In this document: in pieces, positions 1-54,280 of the stretch
Numbering within the stretch: position 1 is the first letter of the stretch
Layout of the letters: every line of letters starts with the position of its first letter
Source of the DNA: Candidatus Levyibacteriota bacterium
GTDB lineage: Bacteria; Patescibacteriota; Microgenomatia; Levybacterales; UBA12049
NCBI GenBank assembly: GCA_963722305.1
Contig: CAVRKE010000002.1
Location: 522,678 to 586,677, forward strand
Direction of reading: 5' to 3'
Length of the DNA: 64,000 bases
Translations under genes and position numbers: made by a program
Notes under the pieces: model-generated
The model's input: only the letters and a program-made list of their open reading frames with translations
What the model was told of the DNA's origin: nothing
The model's database searches: none

Positions 1-23
1 GTCTTTTATAAAAGCGGTAATGC

Positions 24-428
24 TTAAGGGGTTGAAAGATTAACGTTGGGGATATTTAAATTGGAAAGGGTGCCGATATTGAAGAATTGGAGGAGGAGGT
101 TAATGATAAAATAAGCCAAAAAGATCACCACTAAGCCGATGATAGCGGCAATAATATGCTCTCTGGCTTCGGCAACTTTGCTTTTGTCTCCGGTCGAGAT
201 TAGCCACCTAAATCCGCCGTAAATTAAGTAAAAGAGAGCTGCAATAACCGCAATTACAAACACCAATTGAATGGCAGCGCCAACCACGTTGCCAAAATTA
301 TTGGTGGACAGACTACACAAAATATTGAATTGTCCCCCTCCGCAGGTGTTTACTGATCCGGCGGCAAAAGCAGATGTGGCCAAAGAAAAATATGCTACTA
401 AAGATAATGGGAGAATAAGTTTTTTCAT
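24..428 (-). CDS. VirB2/TrbC-like conjugative-type pilin (signal peptide + two-TM pilin core)
   Basis: 134 aa. N-terminal signal peptide (MKKLILPLSLVAYFSLATSAFA) is followed by two hydrophobic helices flanking a short charged loop (…LIYGGFRWLISTGDKSKVAEAREHIIAAIIGLVVIF…), the architecture of TrbC/VirB2 pilins. Paralogous to ORFs 489..839, the C-terminus of 843..2318, and 17359..17763. Confidence 0.5.
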   Translation of the reverse strand: MKKLILPLSLVAYFSLATSAFAAGSVNTCGGGQFNILCSLSTNNFGNVVGAAIQLVFVIAVIAALFYLIYGGFRWLISTGDKSKVAEAREHIIAAIIGLVVIFLAYFIINLLLQFFNIGTLSNLNIPNVNLSTP

Positions 429-488
429 CTACTAATTAAATGCTAGTGCCTTTTTTGGCTGTTGTCAAGACCCATTTTAAGGCTAGCC

Positions 489-839
489 TCACGGGTTATT
501 GTAGTTAAGCGGCGCTGCACCGCTACCCAACAGAAAATTGTAAATAGCATTAATAATTAAAAAGGCGAAAAAAACAACCAATAAGCCAATGATGGCCCAA
601 ACAACCTTTTGTCTGGCGCTACTGACGCGTTGTTTATCGCCTTCGGACATCAACCAATTAAACCCTCCCCAGATTAAAAAAAACAAGGAAAGAAGAATTG
701 CTCCAACTAACAAAAGGTCAAGTCCGGTGCGGACAATTGTTAACAGGGGATCCGGCCCGCCTTCGGGCATGCCGCTGACACCGTGGATTTCTAGCGGTGC
801 ACCGTTAACACCCGGCACTGTTAAAGTAAGCAATTTCAT
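489..839 (-). CDS. VirB2/TrbC-like pilin paralog
   Basis: 116 aa. Shares the core motif with the neighbouring pilin (…LIWGGFNWLMSEGDKQRVSSARQKVVWAIIGLLVVFF… vs …LIYGGFRWLISTGDKSKVAEAREHIIAAIIGLVVIF…). In tandem with the adjacent pilin genes, with a 4-bp gap to the upstream gene. Confidence 0.5.
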   Translation of the reverse strand: MKLLTLTVPGVNGAPLEIHGVSGMPEGGPDPLLTIVRTGLDLLLVGAILLSLFFLIWGGFNWLMSEGDKQRVSSARQKVVWAIIGLLVVFFAFLIINAIYNFLLGSGAAPLNYNNP

Positions 840-842
840 ATT

Positions 843-2318
843 TTACTGGGCAAAACCCGGCAGCTGTAAAATGTTCACTCCGATAATCTGCAGAATAATC
901 AGCGAAAGGATAACAAATAATAACCCGATAATCGCAGCGGTGAGCTGGTCCCTGGCGTTTTTAATATTTTCCGGATTGCCTTGGGAAACCATCATCCGGT
1001 AACCGGAGATAATGATTAAAATTACGGCAATCCCGCCGGCAATACTAAGAATTAGTCCTAAAATTGCCTGAGCGATTTGGTCCGGAGAAGTGGTAATGTC
1101 TCCAATGGCAGTATCGCAGGTAAAAGTATTATTCGGTTCCGGTGTACAGAAGGGCTGGTTTGGGGCAGGGGGAAGTCCAATGCCCTGGAGATCATTAATC
1201 GACTCACAGTAGAATTCCCCTCCGGTTGTAACCCCTCCCTGTAAGCAAACATACCCACTGCAGCATCCGCCAGTGGCCCCTGGCGCGGCATTAGGAGCAC
1301 AAGGGGATGGGTTTTGTGGGGTTCCGTCAGTATTAGTGCCACAGGTGCCTCCACCATAACAGGAATATGTTCCCCCAGTGGTTACGCCTCCCGAACTGCA
1401 AATTTGTCCGGCGCAGCATGAGCCTGCTTGAGCCAATCCCGCTGTGACAGTGGGGTTACAGCTAGACGGGGGAATAGGGGGGTTGGAAGAGGAGTTGCAG
1501 TAATTTAGCGTGCTCACACAACCATATGTAGTATTTGGGTTGGTAGATCCAGCAGTATTGGTTACTACACAACTAAAGTATGTACAACAGCCGTGATTTG
1601 ACTTATTGTCATTTGGGTTACAGGAGGTTGGATTGTGGCCGTTAATGCAGGTTGCCGCAGTATAAACGCAGGCGTAATATTCTGGTGTATTATCAGCAGG
1701 AGGATTAGGTACATGGTGATAACAGGTATAGCCGTCGCAACAGGGATTGGGAGTACAGGAAGTAATATTAGTAGGGTTGGTGCAGGCACCCGGAGCTGAT
1801 GCACTAGAATAACAGCAGGTTGTCGCGCCTGTACAATCAGAGGTTGCCACTTCGCTGCCACCATTGCAGTCGTTTGGGTCTATACAGTTGCCGCCGTAGT
1901 CTCGTTTACAGAAAAGAGGAATGCAACAACTTCCACCTCCTACAGCTGAACAATAGCCTGTAGAGCCTACCATCTGGATGTATCCTGACTGGCACGCGGA
2001 GCCAGACTGACCAGGCTGACATTCCCCGCCCATTGCGCTGCAGGTATCTTCGCAGCAATAATGGGGGTTTGCGGGGTTTGTGGGGTTTGCACAAGCAGGG
2101 TCTGAAGTAGTAGTATAACCGGTAGGGCAGACCTCTCCGCCACCTAAACCATTGGTTGTCGAACAGCTATATGCTTGGTTAGGGCCGCAAGTACCGGCAA
2201 ATACAGATTTAACAGGAGCAAGAATACTTAAGAACAAAAAGATAAAAACAGAAGTGAATAAATAAATGAATAGCCTTCGCACAAGTTTATGATAGAACAA
2301 AAACTGAATAAAATGCAA
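843..2318 (-). CDS. Secreted cysteine/threonine-rich protein with C-terminal VirB2/TrbC-like pilin domain (pilin fusion)
   Basis: 491 aa. Long N-terminal signal/TM region, then ~380 aa very rich in Cys (many CC and CxxC), Thr, Gly, Asn and Pro. The C-terminal ~80 aa (…IAVILIIISGYRMMVSQGNPENIKNARDQLTAAIIGLLFVILSLIILQIIGVNILQLPGFAQ) matches the pilin core of the neighbouring genes and of 17359..17763, which ends …NVLKIPGFSP. Confidence 0.5.
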   Translation of the reverse strand: MHFIQFLFYHKLVRRLFIYLFTSVFIFLFLSILAPVKSVFAGTCGPNQAYSCSTTNGLGGGEVCPTGYTTTSDPACANPTNPANPHYCCEDTCSAMGGECQPGQSGSACQSGYIQMVGSTGYCSAVGGGSCCIPLFCKRDYGGNCIDPNDCNGGSEVATSDCTGATTCCYSSASAPGACTNPTNITSCTPNPCCDGYTCYHHVPNPPADNTPEYYACVYTAATCINGHNPTSCNPNDNKSNHGCCTYFSCVVTNTAGSTNPNTTYGCVSTLNYCNSSSNPPIPPSSCNPTVTAGLAQAGSCCAGQICSSGGVTTGGTYSCYGGGTCGTNTDGTPQNPSPCAPNAAPGATGGCCSGYVCLQGGVTTGGEFYCESINDLQGIGLPPAPNQPFCTPEPNNTFTCDTAIGDITTSPDQIAQAILGLILSIAGGIAVILIIISGYRMMVSQGNPENIKNARDQLTAAIIGLLFVILSLIILQIIGVNILQLPGFAQ

Positions 2319-2338
2319 GCCCTCCCGTGATTGCTGAT

Positions 2339-2725
2339 TTATGATTTTGGATTAATGAATGTTTTGCTTTTTCTGATAAGCCCTTGTAAAAGTGGCCCGA
2401 CGATATTTGATTGTTCAACTAAATCTTGAAAATCTTTCTCAGCCAAGTAGTTTATGTCTTTTGCGATTAATATAAAATTTTTAAGCTCGGACAATGAACC
2501 TTTTGCCAGATAATAAAACTGGACCTTCTCTTTGTAAGTTTGTCTACCGAATCCTTCAGCAATATTTGCGGTAATTGAAGCAGCCGCTCGTCGCATCTGG
2601 TCCACAAGTGAATATGTCTCTTCTCTTGGAAAACTTTTGGTAATTTTATAGGCCAAGATTACCAGTTTATGTCCTTCTCGCCAAACATTTAAATCTGTAA
2701 ATGTTTCTATTTTCCCGTTTTTCAT
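2339..2725 (-). CDS. Four-helix-bundle protein (23S rRNA intervening-sequence protein family, TIGR02436-like)
   Basis: 128 aa. Motif LVILAYKITKSFPREETYSLVDQMRRAAASITANIAEGFGR…LAKGSLSEL is the hallmark of the '23S rRNA IVS / four helix bundle' family. Confidence 0.6.
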   Translation of the reverse strand: MKNGKIETFTDLNVWREGHKLVILAYKITKSFPREETYSLVDQMRRAAASITANIAEGFGRQTYKEKVQFYYLAKGSLSELKNFILIAKDINYLAEKDFQDLVEQSNIVGPLLQGLIRKSKTFINPKS

Positions 2726-2763
2726 AAATCTTTAATCAATAATCTGTAATCTTTAAATTCACA

Positions 2764-4131
2764 TCAGGATGTGAATTTAAACCCGCGGCCTTTGGCGGTC
2801 TGGAGATGCTGTGGAGTATTGGGGTTTTCTTCAATCTTTTTTCTGACCCGGAAAATCAACTGGTCTAAAGCCTGGTCGGTTACACCCAAGGTAGTTTTGG
2901 CTTCTTTCCAAACAGCGTTAATAATTTCCTCCTTTTCCAGCACCCGCTCTTTGTTTTCCAGCATAAATTTAAGCAGCCGGTACTCAAGCGAAGTTAATTT
3001 ATCCGAGATTAATAGCTCGCCTTTGAGGATTTCTTGGGCTTCATTGAGCGAAAAGTGCTCATCCTGTTTTGAAAGTGTTTGTTTTTCTTTAATAAAATCC
3101 GCAAACAAAGAAATGCTTAACAGACCATTTTTAATCAGCCCGACGTTTTCCAGATAACGCAGTTCTTCAGTGTCGGAAGCCAGGGGTTTGGCGCCAACGG
3201 AGAGAAAATTCTGTTCAAAGGGAGTTAAATAATTCCAAATCGCGGCCAAGGTATTGCGGATGGTTTTTTGTTCGAGTAAGAATTTTCTCAGCAGCAATTT
3301 ATTCTCAAATTGTTGCTCGGTGGCCAACAACGCCTCAACCGATAGCAGCAATAAACTACTGTGCCCACCGGTTAATTGCAAAACCTCATCCAACAGTTTT
3401 GGCTCAATTTTTTTCTCGGTGATTTTCTCTAAATAGGAAACCCGGAATTTAATCCCCACCTCATCATATATCGGTAGGTAAATCACTTTGCCCACTACAT
3501 ATTCATAAAAGTCGGATAAAAAGCTGGCTTCCAGAATATCTTCCAGCGGCCGGTTGAGGGAAAAGACCACCGAAAAGCGGTATTTAGCCCTATTCCTTAA
3601 AATTCTTAGGTTGGCAAAAAAATCGCTGTCCACCACCGAAAGGTATTCTTCAAAGCGGTCAAACAAGAAAACGATGGTCAATTCTTTTTCCAGGGCCAGA
3701 TAATCAACGGTTTTTTTTAAGCCCTGAAACAAAACCAATTCGTCTTTAAACTCCAGGCTTTCTTTAAAAATCTGGTTGGCAACGGCGTATTCTGCGTCTT
3801 TTTTCCTTTCGCGCAGCGAATCAACCAAATTTAAAAAGATAAACTTTGTCGCATCAAGCAACGGCCTTTTTTTGATTTCGGAAAAATTTAAATAAACAAA
3901 ATGAAACCAACTTTGCCGTTCTTCGCTGACGTGTTTAATCCTGACGTTGCGGTTGTAAGCCAACAGCCCCAAGAAATTGGAGCGGCCGGCCCCGGGAACG
4001 GAAACCACTTGGCAGGAGCTGCCTTCTTTAATAAAACCCAAAATTTTTTCAATTTCCGCAAAACGGGTATTTTCCGGATACAGAGCTTCGAAATGGGCAG
4101 ATTCGATGGTTGCATTATCTAGTTGTTTCAT
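2764..4131 (-). CDS. ATPase-like (degenerate Walker A) protein with C-terminal OmpR/PhoB-type winged-helix DNA-binding domain
   Basis: 455 aa. N-terminal P-loop-like VSVPGAGRSNFLGL (Arg in place of the Lys in GxxGxGK) and Walker-B-like IVFLFDRFEE. C-terminal …LTSLEYRLLKFMLENKERVLEKEEIINAVWKEAKTTLGVTDQALDQLIFRVRKKIEENPNTPQHLQTAKGRGFKF fits the trans_reg_C (OmpR) consensus. Confidence 0.5.
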   Translation of the reverse strand: MKQLDNATIESAHFEALYPENTRFAEIEKILGFIKEGSSCQVVSVPGAGRSNFLGLLAYNRNVRIKHVSEERQSWFHFVYLNFSEIKKRPLLDATKFIFLNLVDSLRERKKDAEYAVANQIFKESLEFKDELVLFQGLKKTVDYLALEKELTIVFLFDRFEEYLSVVDSDFFANLRILRNRAKYRFSVVFSLNRPLEDILEASFLSDFYEYVVGKVIYLPIYDEVGIKFRVSYLEKITEKKIEPKLLDEVLQLTGGHSSLLLLSVEALLATEQQFENKLLLRKFLLEQKTIRNTLAAIWNYLTPFEQNFLSVGAKPLASDTEELRYLENVGLIKNGLLSISLFADFIKEKQTLSKQDEHFSLNEAQEILKGELLISDKLTSLEYRLLKFMLENKERVLEKEEIINAVWKEAKTTLGVTDQALDQLIFRVRKKIEENPNTPQHLQTAKGRGFKFTS

Positions 4132-4190: not shown

Positions 4191-4445
4191 CTAATGTTTA
4201 TTGTTACTAGATTTAATAATAGCATTAAATATGAGATTAAGCTCTTTTGCTTCTTGCCACAAGATTCTTGCTTCCTTTTTCGTCTCCGGTAAGGTTGTGG
4301 CGATTAACTGGTTAATAAGAGAATTTGTAATTGCGTTTTGGGAAATTTTTTTGCAAAACACAATAATACTCTCCGCAAATTTAGTAGTTCTTTCTTCTAA
4401 ATCGTATTTATTTGGGTTTTCTTTTATTGGCACTTGACTAGTCAT
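4191..4445 (-). CDS. Short four-helix-bundle (23S rRNA IVS family) protein
   Basis: 84 aa. YDLEERTTKFAESIIVFCKK…NSLINQLI matches the N-terminal consensus of the four-helix-bundle family (DLEERT.FA..II.FCKKL). Shorter than usual. The overlapping + ORF 4201..4437 has no recognizable features. Confidence 0.45.
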   Translation of the reverse strand: MTSQVPIKENPNKYDLEERTTKFAESIIVFCKKISQNAITNSLINQLIATTLPETKKEARILWQEAKELNLIFNAIIKSSNNKH

Positions 4446-4543: not shown

Positions 4544-7500
4544 ATGGAAAACGAAAATTATGTTGTCAAGCCGGTTGAAAAACCAGTTGTGCAACAAAAA
4601 CCAAATGAATTGACAAGCAGGCCCAATTCTCCTAAGCTGAATAGAGAGGGGAATATTTTTATGGCAGATACAGTAAACGAAAGCGCACCGACAGGTAACG
4701 GACAAGGGACATCGGATGTTAAAGCAACAGCTGAATCAGGTACTGGAACCGTAACAGCTGAAGATACAGAAGCCAGTGCCAAAGAAGCAAATTCTAACCC
4801 CGCAAAAACAGCAGCCAACGCTGAAGAAGCGGCCAGAGCTAGAGATGAAGAAGCCACAGCCAGAGAGGCAGCAGCCAGAGCCAGAGAGGAAGAGGCAGCC
4901 GGTGAAGAAGACGAAAGCGGAGAAGAGCCAACAGCCAAGACAGCCGGGGAAGACGAAAATACAGCTGAAGAAGCCACCCAAGAGCAGCAGGAGTGGGCAG
5001 CAGAAGCATGGACTTATTTAAATTTGTTAGGTGAGGAAGAAATTAGCGAAGATGACTTACAGGCGCAGCAAAAGAAAATAAGTAAAGGGATTGGTCCTAA
5101 CGGGAAAAAAATGACAATGGATGTTATCGCTAACACCGAATTGGAGGACGAAGAGCGCATCCGGGCAGTGGAAGTAATGCTGCAGCGCGAGAGCAATCCT
5201 TTTAGCGAAGAACAAAAAAAACTGCTGATTGCCGCACACGAAGTCGGCGCAAACGAACCAGGGCGTCTTCCCAACACCATGGCAGGCGCTTATAACTATA
5301 CACAGGAACAGTTAGGAAAGAAAATAAAAAAATTAAAAGAGGCGGGAATAGAGAGCGCAGGAGACCGCCGAAAATTAATCGAAAGCGGTCTGATGGGAAA
5401 GGGATTTAACATCGGTAAAACGGGCATTAATGATGCAGTTATTCTAAACGAAATTAATACGATAGAGTTAATGGTTAATATAGCTATCAGTCAAGAAGCA
5501 AAGATTGAACGGTTACGTGAAGCCATGGCAAGGCTGTCAAGCATGCCGCCTTCGGCAGATAAAGATATTGCCCTAAAAAGGACTAAATTTCATTTGATTA
5601 AAGAATCAATAATGGGTAAAGAAGCTGCCGAGGAGTCAAGACGAAAAGAACCAAAAATATGGGATGGGACACAGGGTTATCAATGGCCCGAAACATATTA
5701 CGAGAATCAATACAATAATCCTGACCGTAAGCTCCACGACAGTCTTCAGGATAACTTTAATAAGATGTTTGATAAGCTTTCGCCTCAGCATGGTGTTGAT
5801 GCAGGCTTAGTCGATTTTATTGTTAACCTGCCTGATTCAAAATTACTTTTTTCGCTTGTCAATAAAATCGCCGCTTTACCTTTGGAAACGGAAATTGCCG
5901 ATTATGAAATCAGTTTCTACGCCAATGCGGTTTTAGATAATATCAAGGAATCTTTATCCAAATCTGCTGCCGGTCCTTCCGTTGAGAGGAGAGAAAGGCA
6001 AACTAAGGTGAATAATCTCTTGGAAGCATACCGACATCTACACCAGATGAATAAATACATCGCCACCGATAATGCCGACCATTTTGCAGATGGGTCAGGC
6101 TCTATTCTGCCGGAGCATCTCCAGGCTTTGCTGGATGTTAAAGGTGTTGATGTGCTGATGAATTTATATGACTCGGGCTACATGAGTTTAATAACAGGAA
6201 CAGATAAATGTGTAACTGTTGCCAATGAAGAAAGGTTACTCGGTAAAGAACTGGAAGGCAGCGAGCTAAAACAGGCGGTTAACAATCTGGGCCGGGTAAG
6301 GTCTATCGGTTCAATCGAGGATCAAATACGCCATTTGGTTGATTTGGCAAGAACCAACCCTTTTCTTTCGGAATTACAAGGTATGACCGATGAGGAAATC
6401 CGTCACGCCATTGGTTGCGCCAGGGTTTTATATAATGATTCTTTACGGTCGGTGGAGGTAGTTTCCTTGGGTGAATGGCGAAAAGGTGCCGAACTTCGGT
6501 CGCCGCCTAAGGAACGCGCTGCCAGACTTTGGTCTCTTGGCTGGGAATGGAAAAGGTTTGAATCGGGCAAAGCCACCGGAGGAATGTGGGTATTAGACCG
6601 TATGCTGACGCACCACCAGGGACTGCGTGTCAAACAGGGTTGGGGGAAAACTTCGATTACCAGATTATCCGGAGGCAAAGATCTTAGAGACTTTGAACTT
6701 AATGGCTTACTCAACGGGGCGAGCATTTTTGCCACCTGGAGGACAGAGGGTACAATTATTGAGCAGGCACCAATAGTCATAGATGGTGAATTAACCACGC
6801 TTAGTAGATACATTCAAGCAGAAAAGGCAAAGAACGAGGAGCCTACTAATCCCCATAAGCTTAAGCCGGATGAGCTTTTAAGACACATCTTCTTGGTTGG
6901 TAACCAGTTAAAACCGGAATTCACCAACGCTTATGGAGTATTGTTAAAATTAGACGATGTTCTTCCTAAAGAACTCGATTCAAAAGAGCTAAAAGATGCT
7001 AAAAAAGCTGTCAGAACCGCCATCCTTAAACGAATGGCCGAGGAAACGCCGATGGCTTTGGCATTTTTAACGGCGGGGATGGATTTTGATTCCCAAAAAG
7101 GAAAAGTTCCGGCATTCCATAGAGATTCTCAGGGAAGACAGCTCACGCTAGATGATTTTCGAGATTTTGCCAAAACACTTAACCCTGACACAAATGAAAC
7201 TTACAGGGATTTATTACTAAAATTAATCACTACCAATGAAATACGCTTGGCCAGCATCAAAAACAACACAGTAGATTTGGGGCGTCAAGCAAAAGGGGTG
7301 TTGGGTCCGTCTTCGCCAATCTTAAACTTGAACGATATTATTTTTGATCCAAGTAGTGGTGGTGCAAAACAGGATTTTCAAGTAGAACTTAGTGGTGCTG
7401 AAAAAGAGCTCTTAGATCAAATTCAAGCTTATGGTAATGACGTGGCAGAGGAGTTGGCTGAGGTCCGTTTTCCCTATAACCCGGTAATGAATGACGTAGT

Positions 7501-8146
7501 CTGGGGAACAGTTGATTTTCGAAAAGCTGGAGCAATTTATTTTAGCCGTCAAGTCGGCGATGATGTCGCCAGGTTTCAGACGGAAAAAAAACTCGAGGCT
7601 GTTAATCGCGAACCGACCATGGAGCCAAAAAATGCCATTGAGGCGATACATGAGGGGGCAAAAATTCTGGACGGGCCAAACGGCAGGGACAAAGTTCAAG
7701 ATGAGTTCTTGCCTTTGATTATGGCCTTGGCTGATTTTTACCGGGCAGGAGGACAACTGGGTGATGGACCACTGGCCACTTTAATGAGGTGGGGACTGCA
7801 TAATACTTGGTATGCGAAGGAATTAGCGAACATACTGAATACTTCTAATTCGGTTGCTCAGGAGTATGGTGGAGCAAAGGCCCCGTGTCTTGATCAGTTG
7901 GCGATGAACGACTGGTTCAATGACGTCTTGGTAGCCGAGCTTACCAGAAGAAGTATTAAATCAAAATTATCGGATGGTACAGTCTATAACTTTGCCGACA
8001 TTGACGGCTGGTTGAGGAGAAAATACGGACTGTCCTTTTTTGGATTACCGCTTTGGCTAATAGTGGTATTACAGAATCTGTTCCCAATAGCGCTGGGCGG
8101 CGGTGTGATTGTGGCCGGGAGAAAGGCCACCGGAGAACAGAAGTAA
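4544..8146 (+). CDS. Giant hypothetical protein (1200 aa): Ala/Glu-rich low-complexity N-terminus, C-terminal transmembrane anchor
   Basis: Longest ORF in the window. The N-terminal ~150 aa are an acidic Ala/Glu/Thr-rich low-complexity region. The C-terminus …LSFFGLPLWLIVVLQNLFPIALGGGVIVAG is hydrophobic (tail anchor). No P-loop or other catalytic motif recognised. Confidence 0.45.
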   Translation: MENENYVVKPVEKPVVQQKPNELTSRPNSPKLNREGNIFMADTVNESAPTGNGQGTSDVKATAESGTGTVTAEDTEASAKEANSNPAKTAANAEEAARARDEEATAREAAARAREEEAAGEEDESGEEPTAKTAGEDENTAEEATQEQQEWAAEAWTYLNLLGEEEISEDDLQAQQKKISKGIGPNGKKMTMDVIANTELEDEERIRAVEVMLQRESNPFSEEQKKLLIAAHEVGANEPGRLPNTMAGAYNYTQEQLGKKIKKLKEAGIESAGDRRKLIESGLMGKGFNIGKTGINDAVILNEINTIELMVNIAISQEAKIERLREAMARLSSMPPSADKDIALKRTKFHLIKESIMGKEAAEESRRKEPKIWDGTQGYQWPETYYENQYNNPDRKLHDSLQDNFNKMFDKLSPQHGVDAGLVDFIVNLPDSKLLFSLVNKIAALPLETEIADYEISFYANAVLDNIKESLSKSAAGPSVERRERQTKVNNLLEAYRHLHQMNKYIATDNADHFADGSGSILPEHLQALLDVKGVDVLMNLYDSGYMSLITGTDKCVTVANEERLLGKELEGSELKQAVNNLGRVRSIGSIEDQIRHLVDLARTNPFLSELQGMTDEEIRHAIGCARVLYNDSLRSVEVVSLGEWRKGAELRSPPKERAARLWSLGWEWKRFESGKATGGMWVLDRMLTHHQGLRVKQGWGKTSITRLSGGKDLRDFELNGLLNGASIFATWRTEGTIIEQAPIVIDGELTTLSRYIQAEKAKNEEPTNPHKLKPDELLRHIFLVGNQLKPEFTNAYGVLLKLDDVLPKELDSKELKDAKKAVRTAILKRMAEETPMALAFLTAGMDFDSQKGKVPAFHRDSQGRQLTLDDFRDFAKTLNPDTNETYRDLLLKLITTNEIRLASIKNNTVDLGRQAKGVLGPSSPILNLNDIIFDPSSGGAKQDFQVELSGAEKELLDQIQAYGNDVAEELAEVRFPYNPVMNDVVWGTVDFRKAGAIYFSRQVGDDVARFQTEKKLEAVNREPTMEPKNAIEAIHEGAKILDGPNGRDKVQDEFLPLIMALADFYRAGGQLGDGPLATLMRWGLHNTWYAKELANILNTSNSVAQEYGGAKAPCLDQLAMNDWFNDVLVAELTRRSIKSKLSDGTVYNFADIDGWLRRKYGLSFFGLPLWLIVVLQNLFPIALGGGVIVAGRKATGEQK

Positions 8147-8175
8147 AGTTTGTTATTGTTGTTCTTGTTCTTGTT

Positions 8176-9816
8176 CTATACTCCAAACCACCCTCTGACA
8201 GCACCGCCGATTCCAGGGCGCTGTCCTTGGGTAGGAGTTTTCATAAAGCTTCTGGCTGCGCTTTGGGCGCCTCCGCGGACCACCGCTGTGCCTCCGCTAA
8301 CGGCCGTGGCTACTCCGCCCAGACTAATCCCCGGAGCTTTGAGGGCTTTTCGAACAACCACAATTGCTTGCGGAGTGGTAAAAATAATCCCAAGTCCGAT
8401 GATTGCGCCGATGATATTCGGGGTGGCGATTGAGCCAATCAGTGGCGGAACAAACGGATTAGTTTGTGCCGTCCCAAACTTATCCATAAAGACAGCCCCC
8501 AAGAGAAACATCCCAATAGTGACGGGAAATGCGGACAGGTTGGCGACAAGGTCTCTTATCCACGGGCCAAAACCAAGCTGGTTATTGCTGGCCGGAATCA
8601 GGCCCAAGGCAATCCAAAAAGGCGCAAAGACAATGTCGATTAAAATAAAAATGTAAGCGGAAATCAGGGTAATCCACAGCCTAAGGAGCATCACAATAAT
8701 TGCCGCCCCGAGAATTAAGAGAGTTAAACTTTTTGTAATTACCCAGGCAATCTGGGAGGCCAAAACTGCACCGACAACTGCGCCAACTAAGGCGCCAATT
8801 ATGGGACCAATAATCGGGACTGCTTCACCAACGTCAGTAAAAAATCCTGCTACCTTACCGGCAAGCACTGCCCCGACAATGGTCCCTAACATTCCAAAAA
8901 TCGCACTTCCGGCGGGGTTGTTAAAAACTGAGGCAGCCAGGTTTGCGACTGTATCGCTGGTAGTTCCGGCAACTCCCCCCAACCCCCCGACATTGGCCAT
9001 GTTAGTGGCTTGGTTTAAGGCATCAAACGGGTTCAGTGCCGAAGGAACGGCCGTAATAGCGTTTTGTATTGTCGGGTCGGCGGAGCCGATTAAGTTGGTG
9101 ATCAGATAAACCGTTACATACATTAGATCAATTAAAAATCCGGCAATGGCAAAGGACAAAGTGACTAAAATAATGCCGATAATTATTTTGGGTATCTGGT
9201 TTTGGATCGTCATGACGGTGCGGGGGTCAATGCGTACCCGCAGCATAATAGCCACGCCGATGAGTAAGAAAATGGCCACAAATAAAATATAGATGCTGTT
9301 ACGAAAAGCAACCCACAGGCTCATGATCGGTGAGAGTTGATTAAAGCCGTTACCCGGTCCGGCGGCATAGGATTTTTGCCCAAAACCAAAACTTTTTGAG
9401 AGATACGCATAGTATTCGGCCGGCTCAGCCGGAGGGGTATATAAAGAAGCGATGCCAAAAGTCATTAGCCCTATTACTCCGCCCCCGTTTTCGACAAAAC
9501 CAATTCTGCCGGATTTGGGATCAACCCCTAAACACTTTTGTTCCGGATCGGTGGGATTGGAACCAAACATTTGGCAAAGCATGGCGTTGGAGGCTTCAAG
9601 CATCATGCTTTGCGCATAAGTGTTCATGTTTTTGGGAACATCAGGATTAGTATTCGGGGTTAAATATTGATTTGCTTGCGTTTGGACATTACTGGTAGTT
9701 TGAGCATGGGCAACAGGCAGGAAAAGGCAAAAGGCAACCAGGAAAATAAAGATTACCGAGAACAGTCGGACCGCTCTTCGCGTAAAGCTTCGTAACGGCA
9801 AGGCAGTAAGTTGCAT
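8176..9816 (-). CDS. VirB6/TrbL-like polytopic membrane protein (putative)
   Basis: 546 aa. Signal peptide, a ~150-aa extracytoplasmic domain, then ≥6 TM helices and a Gly/Ala-rich C-terminal tail. Shares motifs with ORF 14928..17354 (…WVAFRNSIYILFVAIFLL…LSFAIAGFL… vs …WVAVRNITYAMFVLLILI…FSFAIARFL…). The topology resembles TrbL/VirB6. Confidence 0.4.
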   Translation of the reverse strand: MQLTALPLRSFTRRAVRLFSVIFIFLVAFCLFLPVAHAQTTSNVQTQANQYLTPNTNPDVPKNMNTYAQSMMLEASNAMLCQMFGSNPTDPEQKCLGVDPKSGRIGFVENGGGVIGLMTFGIASLYTPPAEPAEYYAYLSKSFGFGQKSYAAGPGNGFNQLSPIMSLWVAFRNSIYILFVAIFLLIGVAIMLRVRIDPRTVMTIQNQIPKIIIGIILVTLSFAIAGFLIDLMYVTVYLITNLIGSADPTIQNAITAVPSALNPFDALNQATNMANVGGLGGVAGTTSDTVANLAASVFNNPAGSAIFGMLGTIVGAVLAGKVAGFFTDVGEAVPIIGPIIGALVGAVVGAVLASQIAWVITKSLTLLILGAAIIVMLLRLWITLISAYIFILIDIVFAPFWIALGLIPASNNQLGFGPWIRDLVANLSAFPVTIGMFLLGAVFMDKFGTAQTNPFVPPLIGSIATPNIIGAIIGLGIIFTTPQAIVVVRKALKAPGISLGGVATAVSGGTAVVRGGAQSAARSFMKTPTQGQRPGIGGAVRGWFGV

Positions 9817-9922
9817 ATCAATTATTAGTTTGTATTATTTTTTTGCTTTTGTCAACTTCGCTGTTAAATTGTTTACTATGTGTTGTTTTATCAAGTGGAG
9901 CGAGGTTCAAGGCCGTGCGACA

Positions 9923-9952
9923 TACTTAAGCCATTACCTCAAGGCTTAAGTA
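9923..9952. promoter_or_regulatory. 10-bp inverted repeat (tacttaagcc N10 ggcttaagta) in divergent intergenic region
   Basis: Perfect 10-bp arms separated by 10 nt, in the 280-bp AT-rich region between divergently transcribed genes 8176..9816 (-) and 10098..11504 (+). Confidence 0.3.
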
Positions 9953-10097
9953 CAATAAGATTAAAAATATGTAATATTCTTGTAATGTTTATGTCAAGCT
10001 AATTATTGAAACTCAGGCTACAATACTGCCTGTAAAAAAGAGAGATTGGTTTGACAAATTATTTAAAACTAATCTAGACTGGAAAGAGAGGATATTT

Positions 10098-11504
10098 ATG
10101 GAAGGAGCAATAGCAGCAGTACCAGCAGAAGTAGTAGCAGGAGTAGCAGTGAGCGCAGCGGTGCCGGTAGCAGCAGCAGGGGCAGAAGCAGCTGTTTCTG
10201 GTGTTGCGGCAGCAGCAGCGCCAGTGGTGGAAGCAGCGGTGGAAGGTGCTTCTAGCGCTGCGGCAAGTACAGCGGAGGCAGCTGCGGGTGTGACATCAGG
10301 CATTGCTGATGCGGCAGCCGGAGCAACCTCTGAGTTGCCCTTGGTCGGGGCATCTTTGACAGGAGAAGCAACCGTACCATTATTGAAAACGACAACCACA
10401 GCTGCCACAGACACTGCAGGTGCAGCAGCTGAAGTCTCTCCAGCTCTTGCAGGGCCTGCTGCAGATTTCATTCCTGCGCCAGCCGAACCGGCGACAACCG
10501 CCGAAGGCCTTGCGGCAAGAGTAGCCGATGTTAGAGACATGGTCAAAGATAGAGAAGGAGGAGACGGTAATGGTGGATCGGCTGACGCTGCTGCACTCGA
10601 GACAACAATAGATCAATCGGTTGGAGAGCAAGAAGCAACAGGAGTTGCACCGGTCCCTGAAAATGGCGGAGCAGCCCAAAACGCTCATCTTGCAGAAGCG
10701 CAAACCGCTGAAGCCAGAACGCAAAGAACGCAAGAATTAACAGAGAGCGTAAGAAATGGAACCGCGACAGATGCGGATCGCGCCGAATTGAATAAATTAA
10801 ATCAAGAAACAGCCTGGGCGGAAGAACACCGAATGTTAAAAGAGAGAATTTTAAAAGGAGAACCATTGTCAGATAAGGAACTGGCAAGGTTAAACAGCTA
10901 TGAAAAGAACGGAACTCCTGGAGAGGAAACTCCAGCGTCACAGGTGGAAGCAGTAGCTACGGAACCAGCTGCAGCGGAAGCCAAAGCGGGTGACGCAGCT
11001 CATGCCCAACCACAACCAATAGAAGGAGAAATACCGGGGAGACCAAGCCTTAGAACTAGGTGGACTAGTGAATTCAGACGAGCAAAGAGAGACTTGGAGG
11101 CAAAAGCCATAGCCAACGGTGTAAACATCAAAGATCCAAAAGTAAAACAACAGATAGAAAATGATGCTGCTCAACAGCGTTATGAGGCTGTTGTCGGAAC
11201 AACCCCGTTAACAGACGAAATTGCAAAAGATCAAGTTTATAAAAAAGCTTTCGGTAAACGATTAGATGATGCCAGAGTAGCACTAAAGCCGGGGGAGAAA
11301 ATTGACCTCGAAGCAATTCAAAGAGATGCTATAGCGGATTATTTGGAGCATTGGGATAAAGCAGCAGTTACGGAAAAAGTCAAAAGGTGGGTAAAAAGAC
11401 ATGGGAAAAGTTTGCTTATGTTATTAGCAGCGGTGGTTTTTGGGGGTGCAATTGAAACAGGAAAACAAGGAACCGAGCCTGCGCGCAATCCAGGTAGAGC
11501 ATAG
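10098..11504 (+). CDS. Ala-rich hypothetical protein with C-terminal TM anchor
   Basis: 468 aa. The N-terminal ~100 aa are almost entirely A/V/G/E/S. The middle is charged/coiled-coil-like. The C-terminus …SLLMLLAAVVFGGAIETG is hydrophobic. Antisense ORFs (10013..10546, 10380..10733, etc.) are artefacts of GCN-rich codon periodicity. Confidence 0.4.
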   Translation: MEGAIAAVPAEVVAGVAVSAAVPVAAAGAEAAVSGVAAAAAPVVEAAVEGASSAAASTAEAAAGVTSGIADAAAGATSELPLVGASLTGEATVPLLKTTTTAATDTAGAAAEVSPALAGPAADFIPAPAEPATTAEGLAARVADVRDMVKDREGGDGNGGSADAAALETTIDQSVGEQEATGVAPVPENGGAAQNAHLAEAQTAEARTQRTQELTESVRNGTATDADRAELNKLNQETAWAEEHRMLKERILKGEPLSDKELARLNSYEKNGTPGEETPASQVEAVATEPAAAEAKAGDAAHAQPQPIEGEIPGRPSLRTRWTSEFRRAKRDLEAKAIANGVNIKDPKVKQQIENDAAQQRYEAVVGTTPLTDEIAKDQVYKKAFGKRLDDARVALKPGEKIDLEAIQRDAIADYLEHWDKAAVTEKVKRWVKRHGKSLLMLLAAVVFGGAIETGKQGTEPARNPGRA

Positions 11505-11550
11505 TGTGGCGAGGAGATGGAATAAAAAACTCACTCCTTATTTTTGACTT

Positions 11551-12396
11551 TTGCTTTTACTCAGTCTATGCTTAGATTGTATGGAAAATAGGGAGAAAGG
11601 ATACGTTACCTTACTGCTTATAATCCTGATTGCCTTTGGTTTTTTATTAAGCGGCGGGTTAATGCCCCTGCTGCAACAGGCAATCACCAGTACAGACCGC
11701 TATCAGTTGGTAGACCGGCCAACCTTTACGCCTCATAATACGCTGCAGTTTTCGACTCTTAGCTTTGTCTATAACGCCCCTCCGGTGGTTTGTAACCCGG
11801 GGTCGAATTTTGGAGACGAACCAGGCATTCTCTATGCTTTTATGCCGGGGTCCAGCCAGTCCCTGACACCCGGCGGGCAAATAAAAGTCTGGTATACCGA
11901 TGAACACGCCTTGACCTTAGGGAAAAATCCGGGGGTGTCTCCTGTGCCGGACACTCACGTCTTGAGTAATCCTGGGGTTGGAGATACAACAGCCAGAGAC
12001 AGCAGTAACCTTCTTTATTATCCGGGTTTGTATATTACCGATATTACCAATGATGCGTCAAGTACAGCCGGGGATGCGCAAAACGGCGGAACAGGTATTC
12101 CGCCATCAATGGTCTACGGCTACTGGAAAGCGTTGGGGGACAGCGATCCTAATTGTGGCGGTGGCGACTGTAATTTACCAGCGGGGGCAGACCAATTCTC
12201 TTCCATTCCCAGCGCAGACCTTAACACTAACACTGGAAGCAGGGGAACGGAAACCGGTTTTCAGGCGGAAATAATCTGGAATGTTGACAGTTTAGGGCTT
12301 ACCCCGGGACACCAATACAGGGCACAGTTTGTGATTCATGATGGGGACAGAGACGGAGATATCGGCCTCGGCTGCGTTTGTCCAATCAACTTCTAA
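11551..12396 (+). CDS. Hypothetical exported protein (N-terminal hydrophobic segment; alternative start at 11581)
   Basis: 281 aa. MENREKGYVTLLLIILIAFGFLLSGG is hydrophobic with a pilin-like flavour but lacks the conserved Glu5. The remainder is a Gly/Asp/Asn-rich soluble domain ending …GDRDGDIGLGCVCP. Confidence 0.35.
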   Translation: MLLLSLCLDCMENREKGYVTLLLIILIAFGFLLSGGLMPLLQQAITSTDRYQLVDRPTFTPHNTLQFSTLSFVYNAPPVVCNPGSNFGDEPGILYAFMPGSSQSLTPGGQIKVWYTDEHALTLGKNPGVSPVPDTHVLSNPGVGDTTARDSSNLLYYPGLYITDITNDASSTAGDAQNGGTGIPPSMVYGYWKALGDSDPNCGGGDCNLPAGADQFSSIPSADLNTNTGSRGTETGFQAEIIWNVDSLGLTPGHQYRAQFVIHDGDRDGDIGLGCVCPINF

Positions 12397-12408
12397 AACA
12401 GCTTTCCA

Positions 12409-14775
12409 CTATTTGGCTGCAGCAATACTGATTGGAGATGGAATATTTGAGGATGGTTGAGCGGTTGACGTGGCAGGCGGTACAGACGGAGTCGGTTGGA
12501 TAACTCCGACTGTTTGACCATTCTGTTGAGCGGTTGTCGTTGGAACAGATTGCGGTGTGGCTAATTTTTGAAAAGTATACACTTCTTTTGTTTGGTCGAA
12601 ACCCACCACAATCGTCTCTCCGGCAACAAACTGCTTCTGTATCAGTAGTGTGGCGATCGGGTTTTCAATCACGGACTGAATAAGTCTTCGCAAGGGGCGT
12701 GCCCCATATATCGGGTCATAACCTTCCTTCGCCAGCTGCTCAAGCGCCTTCGGGTCAATAGTGAACATTACTTGTTGGTCAATCAAAAGCTTGGCGGTTT
12801 TTTGTAACTGGAGTTTGGCAATTTCCAGCATATGTTTTTGCCCGAGAGGATCAAACATAATCACATCGTCAAACCTGTTTAAGAGTTCGGGTTTGAAAAA
12901 TTTATGCAGTTCGTTTTCAACCAACGCTTTGACTTTTTTCAACTCCTCAGAAGAAACTTCATTTTTATTTTGCAATTCTTGTTGAATAAGGCTGCTGCCG
13001 ATGTTTGAGGTAGCGACGATAATCGTATTTTTAAAAGAAATCACATTACCTTTATTATCGGTTAGCCTTCCGTCTTCCAAAATTTGCAGTAAAATGTTAA
13101 AAACGTCCGCATGGGCTTTTTCCACTTCATCAAAAAGCACCACCGAATACGGTTTAATTCTGACCGCCTCGGTTAGTTGACCTCCTTCTTCATAGCCGAC
13201 ATATCCGGGAGGCGCACCAATCAGCTTAGCCACTTCGTGTTTTTCCATATATTCGCTCATGTCAAGTCGTATCATTGCCTCTTCTTTGCCAAAGAGAACT
13301 TCCGCCAGCGTTTTGGCAAGTTCGGTCTTTCCAACGCCGGTGGGACCTAAGAAGATAAATGAGGCAATCGGTCTAGTTACATTTGTCAAACCGATTCTGC
13401 CGCGGCGTACCGCCTCAGCAATGGCTTTGACGGCAACCTCTTGATTAATCAGGCGCTTATGAATTAAATCTTCCAGATGCAGTAATTTCTCGCTTTCGTC
13501 TTCGTTAAGTTTGGTAATCGGGATATTAGTCCATTTGCTAATCACCAACTCGATGTCTTGGCGGGTCACCTGGTTGGAGGTGCGCTTTCCGGACTCCGTA
13601 GAAAGCCGTACGTCTGCCGCTGCTTCATCCAGTACGTCAACCGCTTTGTCGGGCAGGTAACGGTCGCCTATATATCGTTTGGAAAGTTTTACCGCCGCCT
13701 CAATTGTCTCATCGGTGAAGACAACTTTATGAAACTCTTCGTACTTTGATTTTAGAACATTAATCATTTTTACCGCGCTTTCTTCCGGCGGTTCTTCGAC
13801 CAATACAGTCTGGAATCTTCGCTCAAAGGCCTTATCCTTTTCAATATATCTTCGGTATTCGCTAATGGTCGTACTGCCGATAATCTGCAGTTGTCCGCGC
13901 GCAATAAAAGGTTTAATAATGTTTGAGGCGTCCAACGAGCCCTCTGTTTGGCCGGCACCGATGAGCGTCTGAATTTCGTCAACAAAGAGGATGATTTTCC
14001 CTTCGGAGAGTTGCACTTCTTTGATTACCTTTCTTAATCTTTCTTCGAATTCCCCCCGGTGAGATGCCCCCGCCACCAGCGAGGCGATATCTATTTGGAT
14101 AATCCGTTTACCGATCAGTTCATGTGGGACTTTACCCTCAATAATCAGCTGAGCCAACCCTTCAACAATGGCGGTTTTTCCAACACCGGCGTTTCCGATT
14201 ATCACCGGATTATTTTTTATTCTGCGTAAAAGTATGTGTATGGTCCGGTCGATTTCATTAGTTCTTTCGGCTACCGGGTCAAGCTTGCCTTCTTCGGCTA
14301 ACTTGGTGATGTCTGTTCCGAATTCAAGCAGCACGGATTTATTACCAAAGTTATATTTGGTGGAGTTTGCCAACTTTTCCTGAACTTTTTCTTTTTGTAT
14401 TCCTTCTGTTGCCAGGATAGCGGACGCGTTAATGTCGGCCGACATAACAGCCATCAAGATATCTTCCGGCATCACAAAATCCATTTTCCTGTCTTTGGCC
14501 AAAATAAAGGCTTGTTCTAAAAGTCTCTTGGTGTCCTCACCAAGGCTTGGTTGGCCATCATATGTTCCAACTTGTTCCTTCGACTGAATTTCTCTGGCAA
14601 TATCCCCGGCTTTTAGCGAGAATTGTTCAATTAATTGAAAAATTTCCTGATCGTATAAAAGGCCTAAAAGCAGTTGTTCCGGTTGAATTGTCGGTTGTTT
14701 CATGCGTATGCTTTCTTTCTCCGCGGCCGCCAATATCTGAAGTGAGCGCTGGTCCAAATGCGTTAAGACGGTCAT
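12409..14775 (-). CDS. clpC: ClpC/ClpB-family AAA+ chaperone ATPase (two Clp_N repeats, two AAA+ modules)
   Basis: Two Walker A motifs ([15 protein letters not shown] and [15 protein letters not shown]). Clp_N repeats ([16 protein letters not shown]…; …[15 protein letters not shown]…). The ORF track extends to 14931 (840 aa), but the Clp_N domain starts at the internal Met (MTVLTHLDQ…), giving ~789 aa. Confidence 0.7.
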
Positions 14776-17358: not shown

Positions 17359-17763
17359 TTAAGGGCTAAAGCCTGGAATTTTTAAAACATTAACCGTGAT
17401 AACTTGAATAAAAACCAAGGCAAAAACTGCTAATAAAAGACCGGCGATAGATGAATATAGATATCTTTTTCCTTTCCTAACCTGCATGGGGTTTCCTTGA
17501 GAGGTCATCAGGATGTAACCTGCGTAAATAATACCAAGCACAGCAACGCCTCCTATGAGTGACAGCCCAATACCATAAAATTTTTCGACAAATCCAACCG
17601 GGTCATTGGGAATACATCCAAAATCGGTAAGTGTCTCATTGACTAGGCAGTCCATGCTATGTTTAGCGTAGCACATTTTTGTCAATGGTTCTAGATAGCA
17701 CGAAGTTTCTAAAGTGGAGAAATTTAAATAAGTTAGTACATAGGGCGGGATTTGGGCGGGCAA
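17359..17763 (-). CDS. VirB2/TrbC-like pilin paralog
   Basis: 134 aa. The C-terminal half (…GIGLSLIGGVAVLGIIYAGYILMTSQGNPMQVRKGKRYLYSSIAGLLLAVFALVFIQVITVNVLKIPGFSP) is alignable to the C-terminus of 843..2318 (…ISGYRMMVSQGNPENIKNARDQLTAAIIGLL…NILQLPGFAQ). Confidence 0.5.
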   Translation of the reverse strand: MPAQIPPYVLTYLNFSTLETSCYLEPLTKMCYAKHSMDCLVNETLTDFGCIPNDPVGFVEKFYGIGLSLIGGVAVLGIIYAGYILMTSQGNPMQVRKGKRYLYSSIAGLLLAVFALVFIQVITVNVLKIPGFSP

Positions 17764-18016: not shown

Positions 18017-18964
18017 TCATCCAGGTATATAAGGTGTCTGCCTTTTTAAAACTGCATATACTCTATTGAGCAGTTTTCTTGATACCGCAATGGTTGCTTC
18101 TTTGTACCTCTTTCCCTCAGCTCTCTTCTTCTCGTAATACGCCTTAAGTTTCTTATCATGCCGTTGTGCAATAGAAGCTCCTGTATAGAGCATCTGTCTA
18201 AGGTAAGGAGAGCCTCTTTTAGTTAAATGGGTATTATGGTGTAATCTTCCTCCTGATTGTTTGACCTTTGGATCCAATCCCGCATAAGCAACGAGGGCTT
18301 TATCTGATTTGAACTGATTAATATCTCCGATTTCCGCAAGAAGTACCGTTGCTATTGTTTCTCCCACTCCCGGTATAGAGCAAAGCAGTTTAACAAGTTT
18401 TGAATCAACCTCTTCTTCTGCTTTCTTCCTAAATGCTTTGATTGACTGTTCTATGGTATCAATACAGACCTGCAACTCCTCAAAAGAAGCTGTATCATCC
18501 GGATCTACCTCTTGTACGTGCTGTTGTATTAGTAAAAGACGCTGTTTCATGTGTGTTAGCTTTATGGCGGTTCTCTCATGGGTTTTGGCAATGTGAAAAG
18601 TTTGGGTACTTATCAGCCTTCCTTCTCCGGCAAGAGCCAGCTTAGCAATGGTTAATGCGTCTTGAGGGTCAGTTTTTCTCTTTCGAACAGTTGCTTTGGT
18701 ATATTGCTTAGTCACAATGGGATTTAATAACCTCAATGGTATTTTAGAAGAAAGAGCCAAAAGTGCAAGTACCCTGTGGTATTCGGTAGTTGCCTCACAA
18801 GAGAGCAGCATCTTTTTGTACGGAAGAGCATTTAACCACTTATCGATACTTTCCTTGTTATTCTTAACGGTAAATGAATGCTTTATTCGTATTGATTTAT
18901 CAATTGCCACAGCAACAAGGGTGTCTTTTGAGACATCTACGCCTACAACTATCATTTTCATCAC
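18017..18964 (-). CDS. IS110-family transposase (DEDD-type)
   Basis: 315 aa. N-terminal MIVVGVDVSKDTLVAVAID is the characteristic IS110/IS116/IS902 start. C-terminal region (…LCSIPGVGETIATVLLAEIGDINQFKSDKALVAYAGLDPKVKQSGG…) matches the Transposase_20 domain. Confidence 0.7.
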   Translation of the reverse strand: MMKMIVVGVDVSKDTLVAVAIDKSIRIKHSFTVKNNKESIDKWLNALPYKKMLLSCEATTEYHRVLALLALSSKIPLRLLNPIVTKQYTKATVRKRKTDPQDALTIAKLALAGEGRLISTQTFHIAKTHERTAIKLTHMKQRLLLIQQHVQEVDPDDTASFEELQVCIDTIEQSIKAFRKKAEEEVDSKLVKLLCSIPGVGETIATVLLAEIGDINQFKSDKALVAYAGLDPKVKQSGGRLHHNTHLTKRGSPYLRQMLYTGASIAQRHDKKLKAYYEKKRAEGKRYKEATIAVSRKLLNRVYAVLKRQTPYIPG

Positions 18965-54223: not shown

Positions 54224-54280
54224 TCAATAATAATACCACCATTAAGATCGACTGACAACGTTTTTAACGATTGTTATATA

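Follow-up and report, generated by a model that had tools for sequence, protein, structure and literature searches.

A pilin-family protein with a cysteine-rich, variable ectodomain heads the pilin array of a Levybacterial chromosomal locus and is a candidate host-contact protein

The stretch of DNA analyzed here (the window) is 64,000 nucleotides long and corresponds to positions 522,678 to 586,677 of contig CAVRKE010000002.1 in assembly GCA_963722305.1 of a Candidatus Levyibacteriota bacterium. At positions 843..2318 on the reverse strand it contains a real, uninterrupted open reading frame (ORF) of 491 codons, counted in the ORF list from a TTG, whose product we refer to as the long pilin. 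It consists of an N-terminal leader, a cysteine-rich ectodomain, and a C-terminal pilin core, and the sequence, a match to the PF18895 family and alignment with paralogs agree with the sequence-only reading that this is a genuine fusion protein. We think it probable that the product is a modular VirB2-like pilin belonging to a type IV secretion system (T4SS) of the Levybacteria, ultrasmall bacteria of the candidate phyla radiation (CPR), and that it presents a variable domain for adhesion or host recognition.

The pilin core spans amino acids 391–491 (846..1148, reverse strand) and is defined by the PF18895 match, AlphaFold2 modeling, conserved columns in 120 homologs, and the paralog alignment. 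It comprises a C391–C401 loop, a T-A-I-G motif, two helices separated by an SQGN polar loop, and a C-terminal L-P-G-F motif. The PF18895 T4SS_pilin profile matches residues 410–479 with an E-value of 2.1e-11 and 44.2 bits (gathering cutoff 26.6), covering profile positions 3–71 of 71, and the core keeps every family-invariant position. In a full-length AlphaFold2 model built with the 120 homologs, the core is predicted with a local distance difference test score (pLDDT) of 85–94, and forms a small beta-loop closed by C391–C401, a helix at 412–444, a four-residue turn and a second helix at 449–483. All three stand-alone pilins in the window (24..428, 489..839 and 17359..17763) also match PF18895, and the core aligns with them at 24–35% identity, co-linear through both helices. 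The claim that the C-terminus is a complete two-helix pilin core homologous to these paralogs thus holds under formal alignment, and the long pilin is a member of PF18895 by profile match, by its two-helix hairpin with a short polar loop, and by its location in a pilin array. It does depart from classical small pilins in size, the mature protein having ~450 residues compared with ~70–120 for the classical forms. The VirB2/TrbC family PF04956 gave no match in the long pilin, and one short paralog matches it at E=0.024.

Between leader and core lies the cysteine-rich ectodomain (amino acids 42–372; 1203..2195, reverse strand), which amounts to about 350–365 residues when counted up to the pilin core, is rich in Thr, Gly, Asn, Ser and Pro, and holds 42 of the 44 cysteines. 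The description of this middle part as extraordinarily cysteine-rich is fully borne out; cysteine makes up 9.0% of the long pilin but only 0.58% (97 of 16,816 residues) of 43 other window genes, a ~15-fold enrichment (binomial p ~7e-39). There are seven CC pairs, and the cysteines are laid out as 2+6+6+4+6+6+6+6+2, the first pair being C44 and C52. Six units share the spacing C-C-CC-C-C (amino acids 64–100, 109–145, 179–217, 224–267, 274–320 and 326–371) and together with one four-cysteine unit they are numbered M1–M7; the linkers between units are 5–8 residues long. The homology of M6 and M7 is clear (BLAST E=3e-13; z=6.3 relative to shuffled sequences in which the cysteines stay in place). 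The M4–M5 (BLAST E=8e-7), M4–M7 and M1–M4 similarities are weaker (z about 2.9 in the same shuffles). In these comparisons the similarity of units 2 and 3 to the others is limited to the cysteines, and from the sequences at least five of the six C-C-CC-C-C units appear to be related to one another. A scan of the 119 other homologs found the same unit in 18 of them (25 copies, usually one or two each). A proline-rich linker, SINDLQGIGLPPAPNQPF (amino acids 373–390; 1149..1202, reverse strand), joins the last unit to the pilin core, and has block-mean pLDDT values of ~60–68 compared with the 85–94 of the core.

The ectodomain has few recognizable relatives. An HMMER search with the whole ectodomain against 1.84 billion representative proteins returned only P0001, which derives from the same gene, and an ortholog, P0002, and a module-profile search of 5.8 billion proteins gave no matches. 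An AlphaFold2 model of M7, made from a 25-sequence alignment of the units, has a mean pLDDT of 82 and a beta-hairpin between the last two cysteines. Foldseek searches with M7 and with the full-length model found nothing significant (best E 4.3); the best-looking structural neighbor of M7 was J-atracotoxin, with a non-significant TM score of 0.54 on the target. The units recall knottins (inhibitor cystine knots) in their cysteine spacing and modeled hairpin, and are putative knottins at most. This likeness is one of several points in favor of a precursor, in which the ectodomain is cleaved off, either to leave a pilin of normal size or to release soluble knottin-like toxins or antimicrobials onto the host. 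VirB2 and TrbC undergo proteolytic maturation and cyclisation, and a profile alignment by hhalign (see below) places the mature N-terminus of VirB2 (QSAGG) opposite the T-A-I-G motif just before helix 1. Pfam scans of the individual units also gave Tachystatin_B, Antifungal_pept and Dickkopf_N at E=0.03–0.05, although these matches are below threshold and expected by chance over seven queries. The short linkers between the units count against a precursor, as does the fact that no conserved protease motif (dibasic or A-x-A) is seen between the units or at the ectodomain/core junction. The suggestion in the sequence-only reading that the cysteine-rich part is released by processing has thus found no support, and we regard a precursor as improbable.

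A disulfide-rich ectodomain is supported statistically by the family as a whole. In 154 of 159 non-identical long pilins with a recognizable leader, the mature part has an even number of cysteines (p=2e-39), which is what obligatory pairing predicts, and the ectodomain cysteines of the long pilins are therefore very probably disulfide-bonded, judging from this parity. The median count is 14 cysteines per long pilin, and the protein described here, with 44, is second to that of locus L034 (50) and above that of L046 (42). CPR genomes are enriched in MdbA-like thiol-disulfide oxidoreductases, often encoded beside VKOR (bioRxiv 10.1101/335083); no DsbA, MdbA or VKOR genes are recognizable among the annotated ORFs of the window.

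A fusion of this type could in principle be artefactual, with a frameshift or assembly error having joined a gene for a cysteine-rich secreted protein to a separate short pilin gene, and one comparison appears to favor this. The closest database protein, P0001, is 96% identical but ends at residue 384 without a pilin domain. However, the contig from which P0001 derives (L001; ENA ERZ25039473, contig_42841) is 99.25% identical to the window (11–3621 compared with window positions 1–3609) and differs from it over these 3.6 kb by 15 substitutions and 12 scattered single-base indels, which break three pilin genes and split the short pilins into fragments of 50, 62 and 87 residues. Because the indels are scattered and also hit the neighboring pilin genes, the truncation of P0001 is best explained as assembly noise. 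An in-frame stop in a relative had been named beforehand as a sign of two joined genes, and it is formally present in P0001 and L001, but its origin lies in an indel-ridden assembly. Moreover, the 42%-identical ortholog P0002 has the same uninterrupted layout, in which the cysteines of units 4–7 are conserved, and more than 120 further clusters from independent assemblies show the uninterrupted architecture. We consider an artefact to be extremely unlikely.

The start of the gene is most likely not at the TTG. The mechanical ORF runs to TTG 2318, but a coding sequence from GTG 2282 to the stop at 843–845 (843..2282, reverse strand), encoding a 479-residue precursor presumably beginning MRRLFIYLF, is the most likely one, and the gene caller that annotated the near-identical P0001 also began at the position equivalent to GTG 2282. 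Six bases 5′ of this GTG is a promoter-like element, TTGCAT-N18-TATCAT (2288..2317, reverse strand), and a corresponding sequence of the form TTGCA[AT]-N17/18-TA[CT]GAT-N6-GTG/ATG precedes most long pilin genes in the 63 species-level loci described below (e.g. L005–L062). The element was not listed by a generic sigma-70 scan and so rests on its cross-species conservation. The first 12 codons of the 491-codon ORF overlap it, such that the conserved "MHF...YDK" peptide reflects conservation of the DNA, and these codons are most likely not translated; the element makes ORF callers add this spurious N-terminal extension to long pilins. Its position six bases before the start would imply a near-leaderless transcript. 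The GTG start leads directly into a Sec-type signal peptide, VRRLFIYLFTSVFIFLFLSILAPVKSVFA (amino acids 13–41; 2196..2282, reverse strand), with a basic n-region, a 20-residue hydrophobic core and a V-F-A site (SVFA|GTCG), and cleavage is predicted before GTCG. Hydropathy analysis shows three hydrophobic segments, one in the leader (amino acids 11–44) and two in the core (414–445 and 455–490), in agreement with the proposal that the protein starts with a leader. A lipoprotein was considered and rejected, as the first cysteine has no preceding lipobox.

The long pilin belongs to a large family. Among the listed homologs, 119 others of 270–689 residues end in the same pilin core, with a PF18895 match in every case, and the architecture is common to over 120 protein clusters in total and is seen at 63 species-level loci. 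The latter come from a scan of one genome per species with a profile made from long-pilin cores only, which gave 74 loci, mostly titled Levybacteria or Levyibacteriota. When the ORFs of these loci are searched with a pilin-core hidden Markov model, most of the 63 show a stereotyped four-gene array that is headed by the long pilin (~200–680 residues) and continues with short pilins of ~105–135, ~130–170 and ~100–130 residues, which by array position have 0, 2 and usually 4 cysteines; seven loci have two long pilins in tandem. The three short pilins are thus separate conserved types, which suggests that each has a structural role of its own and that they are not simply antigenic variants. In the window, the second array gene (489..839, reverse strand) encodes a 116-residue short pilin without cysteines (PF18895 E=2.5e-7) in a position and size class common in the 63 loci, and it has no obvious signal peptide. 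The third (24..428, reverse strand), also at a conserved position, encodes a 134-residue short pilin with two cysteines and its own signal peptide (PF18895 E=1.4e-11). The fourth array pilin is just past the start of the window, as in L001 (3962–4450). The sequence-only reading had called the architecture unusual, which is accurate only in comparison with classical VirB2/TrbC pilins; its proposed search for similar fusions found them in abundance, and in the Levybacteria the long pilin is a conserved first array member. It thus stands at the extreme of a widespread class that has not been described before, and is not a one-off. Public annotations label these proteins "pilin" or "hypothetical protein", and in the literature on Patescibacterial pilin arrays that we searched by term, the pilins are portrayed as small and divergent in sequence, and there is no mention of long or modular members, of their first position, of their disulfides, or of ectodomain hypervariability.

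The genomic context is that of a T4SS locus, most clearly so in the loci of two annotated relatives, L002 and L003. These contain in order genes for a polytopic membrane protein (~540–560 residues), a divergently transcribed protein of 900–1200 residues and a Trans_reg_C regulator, followed by the four pilins, a PrgI(VirB3)-CarboxypepD_reg protein, a TraC-like protein, a VirB4-type ATPase, dnaN and dnaA. The arrangement is that of the chromosomal T4SS known to lie near the origin in Patescibacteria (PMC12102498). The upstream genes of the locus are the same and in the same order in the window. The regulator-like gene (2764..4131, reverse strand) encodes a 455-residue protein with a C-terminal OmpR/PhoB-type winged helix (PF00486 Trans_reg_C, E=7.8e-18); its position is conserved in L002 and L003 and the product is 91% identical to that of L002. 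The 1200-residue divergently transcribed protein (4544–8146, forward strand) has an acidic, Ala-rich N-terminus and no Pfam match. The polytopic membrane protein (8176–9816, reverse strand; 546 residues, 81% identical to its L002 counterpart) also lacks a Pfam match; it could be a divergent VirB6, which according to the literature is hard to find in Microgenomatia. Beyond the array, L001 encodes at 4800–12492 a DUF5663 protein, together with three large ORFs of 826, 291 and at least 810 residues that have no Pfam match. Arrays of 2–11 VirB2-like pilin genes have been reported in Patescibacteria, especially in Microgenomatia (Quinonero-Coronel et al., PMC12102498); the same study detected no adhesin in the Patescibacterial T4SS, and pilin genes are essential in Southlakia (PMC10633639).

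The two parts of the long pilin differ sharply in conservation. Among the 63 species-level long pilins, the cores are alignable in 1949 of 1953 pairs with a median identity of 57%, whereas any alignable ectodomain segment is present in just 68 pairs (3.5%). A similar trend is seen between strains. Ten of the 15 substitutions between L001 and the window lie in the long pilin ORF, eight of these are nonsynonymous, seven are in amino acids 259–306, none affects a cysteine, and two of the amino acid differences lie in the proline-rich linker. This clustering would be consistent with fast ectodomain change, although the L001 assembly is noisy and the pattern is accordingly only suggestive.

Six of the ten substitutions in the ORF are A-to-G, which recalls diversification by a diversity-generating retroelement (DGR), with a neighboring bAvd-like gene as its accessory factor. 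That gene, at 2339–2725 (reverse strand), is flanked by those of the regulator and the long pilin. It encodes a four-helix-bundle protein of the 23S_rRNA_IVP family (E=3e-36); its bAvd match is below the gathering score. However, no template/variable repeat pair involving the ORF was found in the 64 kb, there is no reverse transcriptase domain in any scanned ORF, genes of the IVP family sit at several unrelated places in related loci (L003), and the strain differences themselves stem from a noisy assembly. We therefore reject the ORF as a DGR target, a role that we judge to have only the slightest chance of being correct. A shorter ORF at 4191–4445 (reverse strand) appears by eye to be a fragment of the same 23S_rRNA_IVP family.

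Some indication of what the ectodomain does comes from other modular pilins. A Pfam scan of the 120 homologs gave as extra matches only one late-nodulin and one TrbC, the late-nodulin match being the sole one in an ectodomain, and the species-level long pilin of L020 has a PKD-type match (E=1.5e-5). Proteins of 492–896 residues in Falkowbacteria and Parcubacteria (L073 5774–8284 and 9210–11798; L074 7845–10535; L075 2241–3719; L076 8–2380) have an N-terminal T4SS_pilin domain followed by Big_5 immunoglobulin-like (Ig-like) domains, with a Laminin_G_3 lectin domain in addition in two of these proteins. Their pilin domain additionally matches TrbC at ~1e-4, and by their domain order they form a second class of modular T4SS pilins in which the graft is C-terminal. 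Since a VirB2-type hairpin has its two ends on the outer side, it makes no topological difference whether a module is grafted N-terminally or C-terminally. Ig-like and lectin domains are typical of tethered adhesins and not of toxin precursors, which argues further against a precursor for the long pilin. That other CPR lineages attach such modules to this pilin domain strengthens the proposal that the cysteine-rich part is a displayed adhesin, and surface display as an adhesin is its best-supported function.

A plausible course of events is that the long pilin would be exported by the Sec pathway and its leader cleaved, after which the C-terminal helices would enter the membrane as a hairpin whose two ends lie outside the cell. 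The hairpins of VirB2 and TraA have both termini outward, and the same membrane topology is inferred here by analogy, which would leave the ~350-residue N-terminal part exposed on the cell surface. This part would be a string of small disulfide-stapled units that grew by tandem duplication and is connected to the core by the proline-rich linker. The conserved core would dock the long pilin into an assembly built by the T4SS and the three short pilins; this may be a pilus, with the long pilin most plausibly a minor or tip subunit, or else a shorter stalk, and the hypervariable ectodomain would be an adhesin or host-recognition module that contacts the partner cell. We infer both the incorporation of the long pilin into a filament and its adhesive function.

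Several observations weigh against this interpretation. No T4SS pilus has been observed in Patescibacteria, and reviews treat it as a mere possibility (PMC12857230). The relationship of the core to classical pilins is marginal: when its profile is compared by hhalign with one built from eight VirB2/TrbC sequences of annotated plasmids, the alignment is co-linear but has an E-value of 0.018 and a probability of 2.6%. A PDB sequence search with the core profile gave only chance-level membrane-helix matches, and a fold search against solved pili found nothing significant, the best being the Aeropyrum conjugation pilus 8dfu (E=4.9). The bulky N-terminal domain rules out head-to-tail cyclisation of the VirB2/TrbC type unless it is first removed. 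Pfam finds no known domain, and no recognizable binding domain, in the ectodomain. In the full-length AlphaFold2 model the pLDDT is mostly <50 across the ectodomain, and with confidence this low outside the core, the model is uninformative on the ectodomain fold. In this strain, as represented by L001, there is no TraC-like or VirB4 gene in the 8 kb past the array, and directly after the pilins there is a 44-residue PrgI/VirB3-like remnant (4644–4772); the T4SS core genes of this strain may have moved or been lost.

Some of the same considerations favor a simpler role in which the pilin hairpin is just a membrane anchor or T4SS-docking element, and the protein is a non-polymerised surface stalk, wall spanner or receptor that never enters a filament. 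Monoderm conjugative T4SSs are generally without pili (PMC10633639, PMC12857230), and no Patescibacterial one has been observed. The ~seven disulfide-rich units in a row could serve just to cross the cell wall, and the conservation of the four array members as distinct types suggests a defined hetero-oligomer and not a homopolymer. However, the core is the most conserved part of the protein and retains all PF18895-invariant positions, which exceeds the constraint expected of a bare anchor. We regard a simple anchor as rather unlikely, while noting that it overlaps with a modular pilin in that the ectodomain is surface-displayed either way and only the supramolecular form differs.

The long pilin has features of several known systems. 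It shares with pilins of the VirB2/TrbC/TraA type and of PF18895 a leader, two hydrophobic helices, a short polar loop, and an arrangement in tandem arrays, and in relatives the arrays adjoin genes of VirB3-like, TraC-like and VirB4-like type close to dnaA. It differs from these pilins in having a ~350-residue disulfide-rich ectodomain between the leader and helix 1, and a length of 479–491 residues compared with ~100–130. The closest parallel in design is Streptococcus sanguinis PilB and PilC, which likewise combine a small pilin module, a short linker and a bulky external module and are encoded alongside ordinary pilins. PilB has a vWA module and PilC has Ig-like and ConA-like lectin modules, with both proteins modeled at the pilus tip (PMC8179133, PMC9934059), and the PilC pair is of the same module types as those found on the CPR T4SS pilin domain. 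The three parts of the modular-pilin concept (Raynaud et al. 2021) are all present in the long pilin, with a core at 391–491, a linker at 373–390 and an ectodomain at 42–372. In PilB and PilC, however, the pilin fold and assembly machine are unrelated (a type 4 filament rather than a T4SS) and the module is C-terminal rather than N-terminal, and unlike theirs, the module of the long pilin has no recognizable domain family. Since the pilin module is from a different superfamily, the match is to the modular-pilin design and not to the type IV pilin family.

The proposed role, target-cell contact and specificity for a T4SS, is shared with the pilus-tip proteins VirB5, TraC and CagL and with PrgB-type adhesins of Gram-positive conjugation systems, and the variable TrwL/TrwJ and VirB2 paralog arrays of Bartonella and Anaplasma likewise show amplified paralogs and variability in surface-exposed parts. 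In sequence and fold the long pilin is unrelated to these proteins, and here the candidate adhesin is covalently fused to a pilin core; no VirB5 or PrgB homolog has been reported in Patescibacteria (PMC12102498). The knottins, for example tachystatin B, antifungal peptides of the Alo-3 type and J-atracotoxin, have the same six-cysteine C-C-CC-C-C spacing and a beta-hairpin like that modeled for M7. However, knottins are free secreted peptides, whereas the units here have longer inter-cysteine loops and are concatenated in a membrane-tethered bacterial protein; they have no significant sequence or fold match to knottins.

Elsewhere in the window, the third stand-alone pilin (17359–17763, reverse strand) resembles long pilins in its core, which ends in KIPGFSP and is 35% identical to the long pilin core, but it lacks a signal peptide. 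It adjoins an IS110-family transposase (18017–18964, reverse strand) and so could be what is left of another long pilin that the insertion truncated. Directly downstream of this orphan pilin, an 808-residue polytopic membrane protein without a Pfam match is encoded at 14928–17354 (reverse strand), and within this ORF there is a 168-nucleotide tandem duplication (15796–16131; copies 99% identical) that repeats a 56-residue Gln/Thr-rich segment. Further away are two tandem paralogs encoding class A penicillin-binding proteins with transglycosylase and transpeptidase domains (49652–51973 and 52022–54223, both reverse strand; ~72% nucleotide identity over several segments), and a gene at 54152–55324 (forward strand) whose product joins a Colicin_V (CvpA-like) membrane domain to a CAP (cysteine-rich secretory protein) domain. 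A family of CAP-domain membrane proteins is reportedly nearly unique to CPR bacteria (bioRxiv 10.1101/335083).

The only genetically tractable Patescibacterium cannot grow epibiotically without its T4SS and pilin array, whose function has been described as completely unknown (PMC11665869, PMC10633639). With a hypervariable, disulfide-rich domain attached to its pilin core, this conserved array member offers a specific candidate for the part that contacts the host, and makes the hypothesis of host specificity directly testable. The modular pilin design is also extended by these proteins from type 4 filaments to T4SS pilins, and several hundred residues per protein of uncharacterized, Pfam-less, cysteine-rich sequence are flagged for structural work. 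A bolder view, which we hold more tentatively and think somewhat less likely to be right than wrong, is that Patescibacteria build a T4SS surface filament or stalk whose first-encoded subunit is a modular pilin, that its cassette-like disulfide-stapled ectodomain is the determinant of host range in these episymbionts, and that the six-cysteine unit represents a new bacterial family of knottin-like mini-domains that grows by tandem duplication. If true, the long pilin would be to the T4SS what receptor-binding proteins are to phages, would parallel the modular type IV pilins, and would be the adhesin missing so far from these systems.

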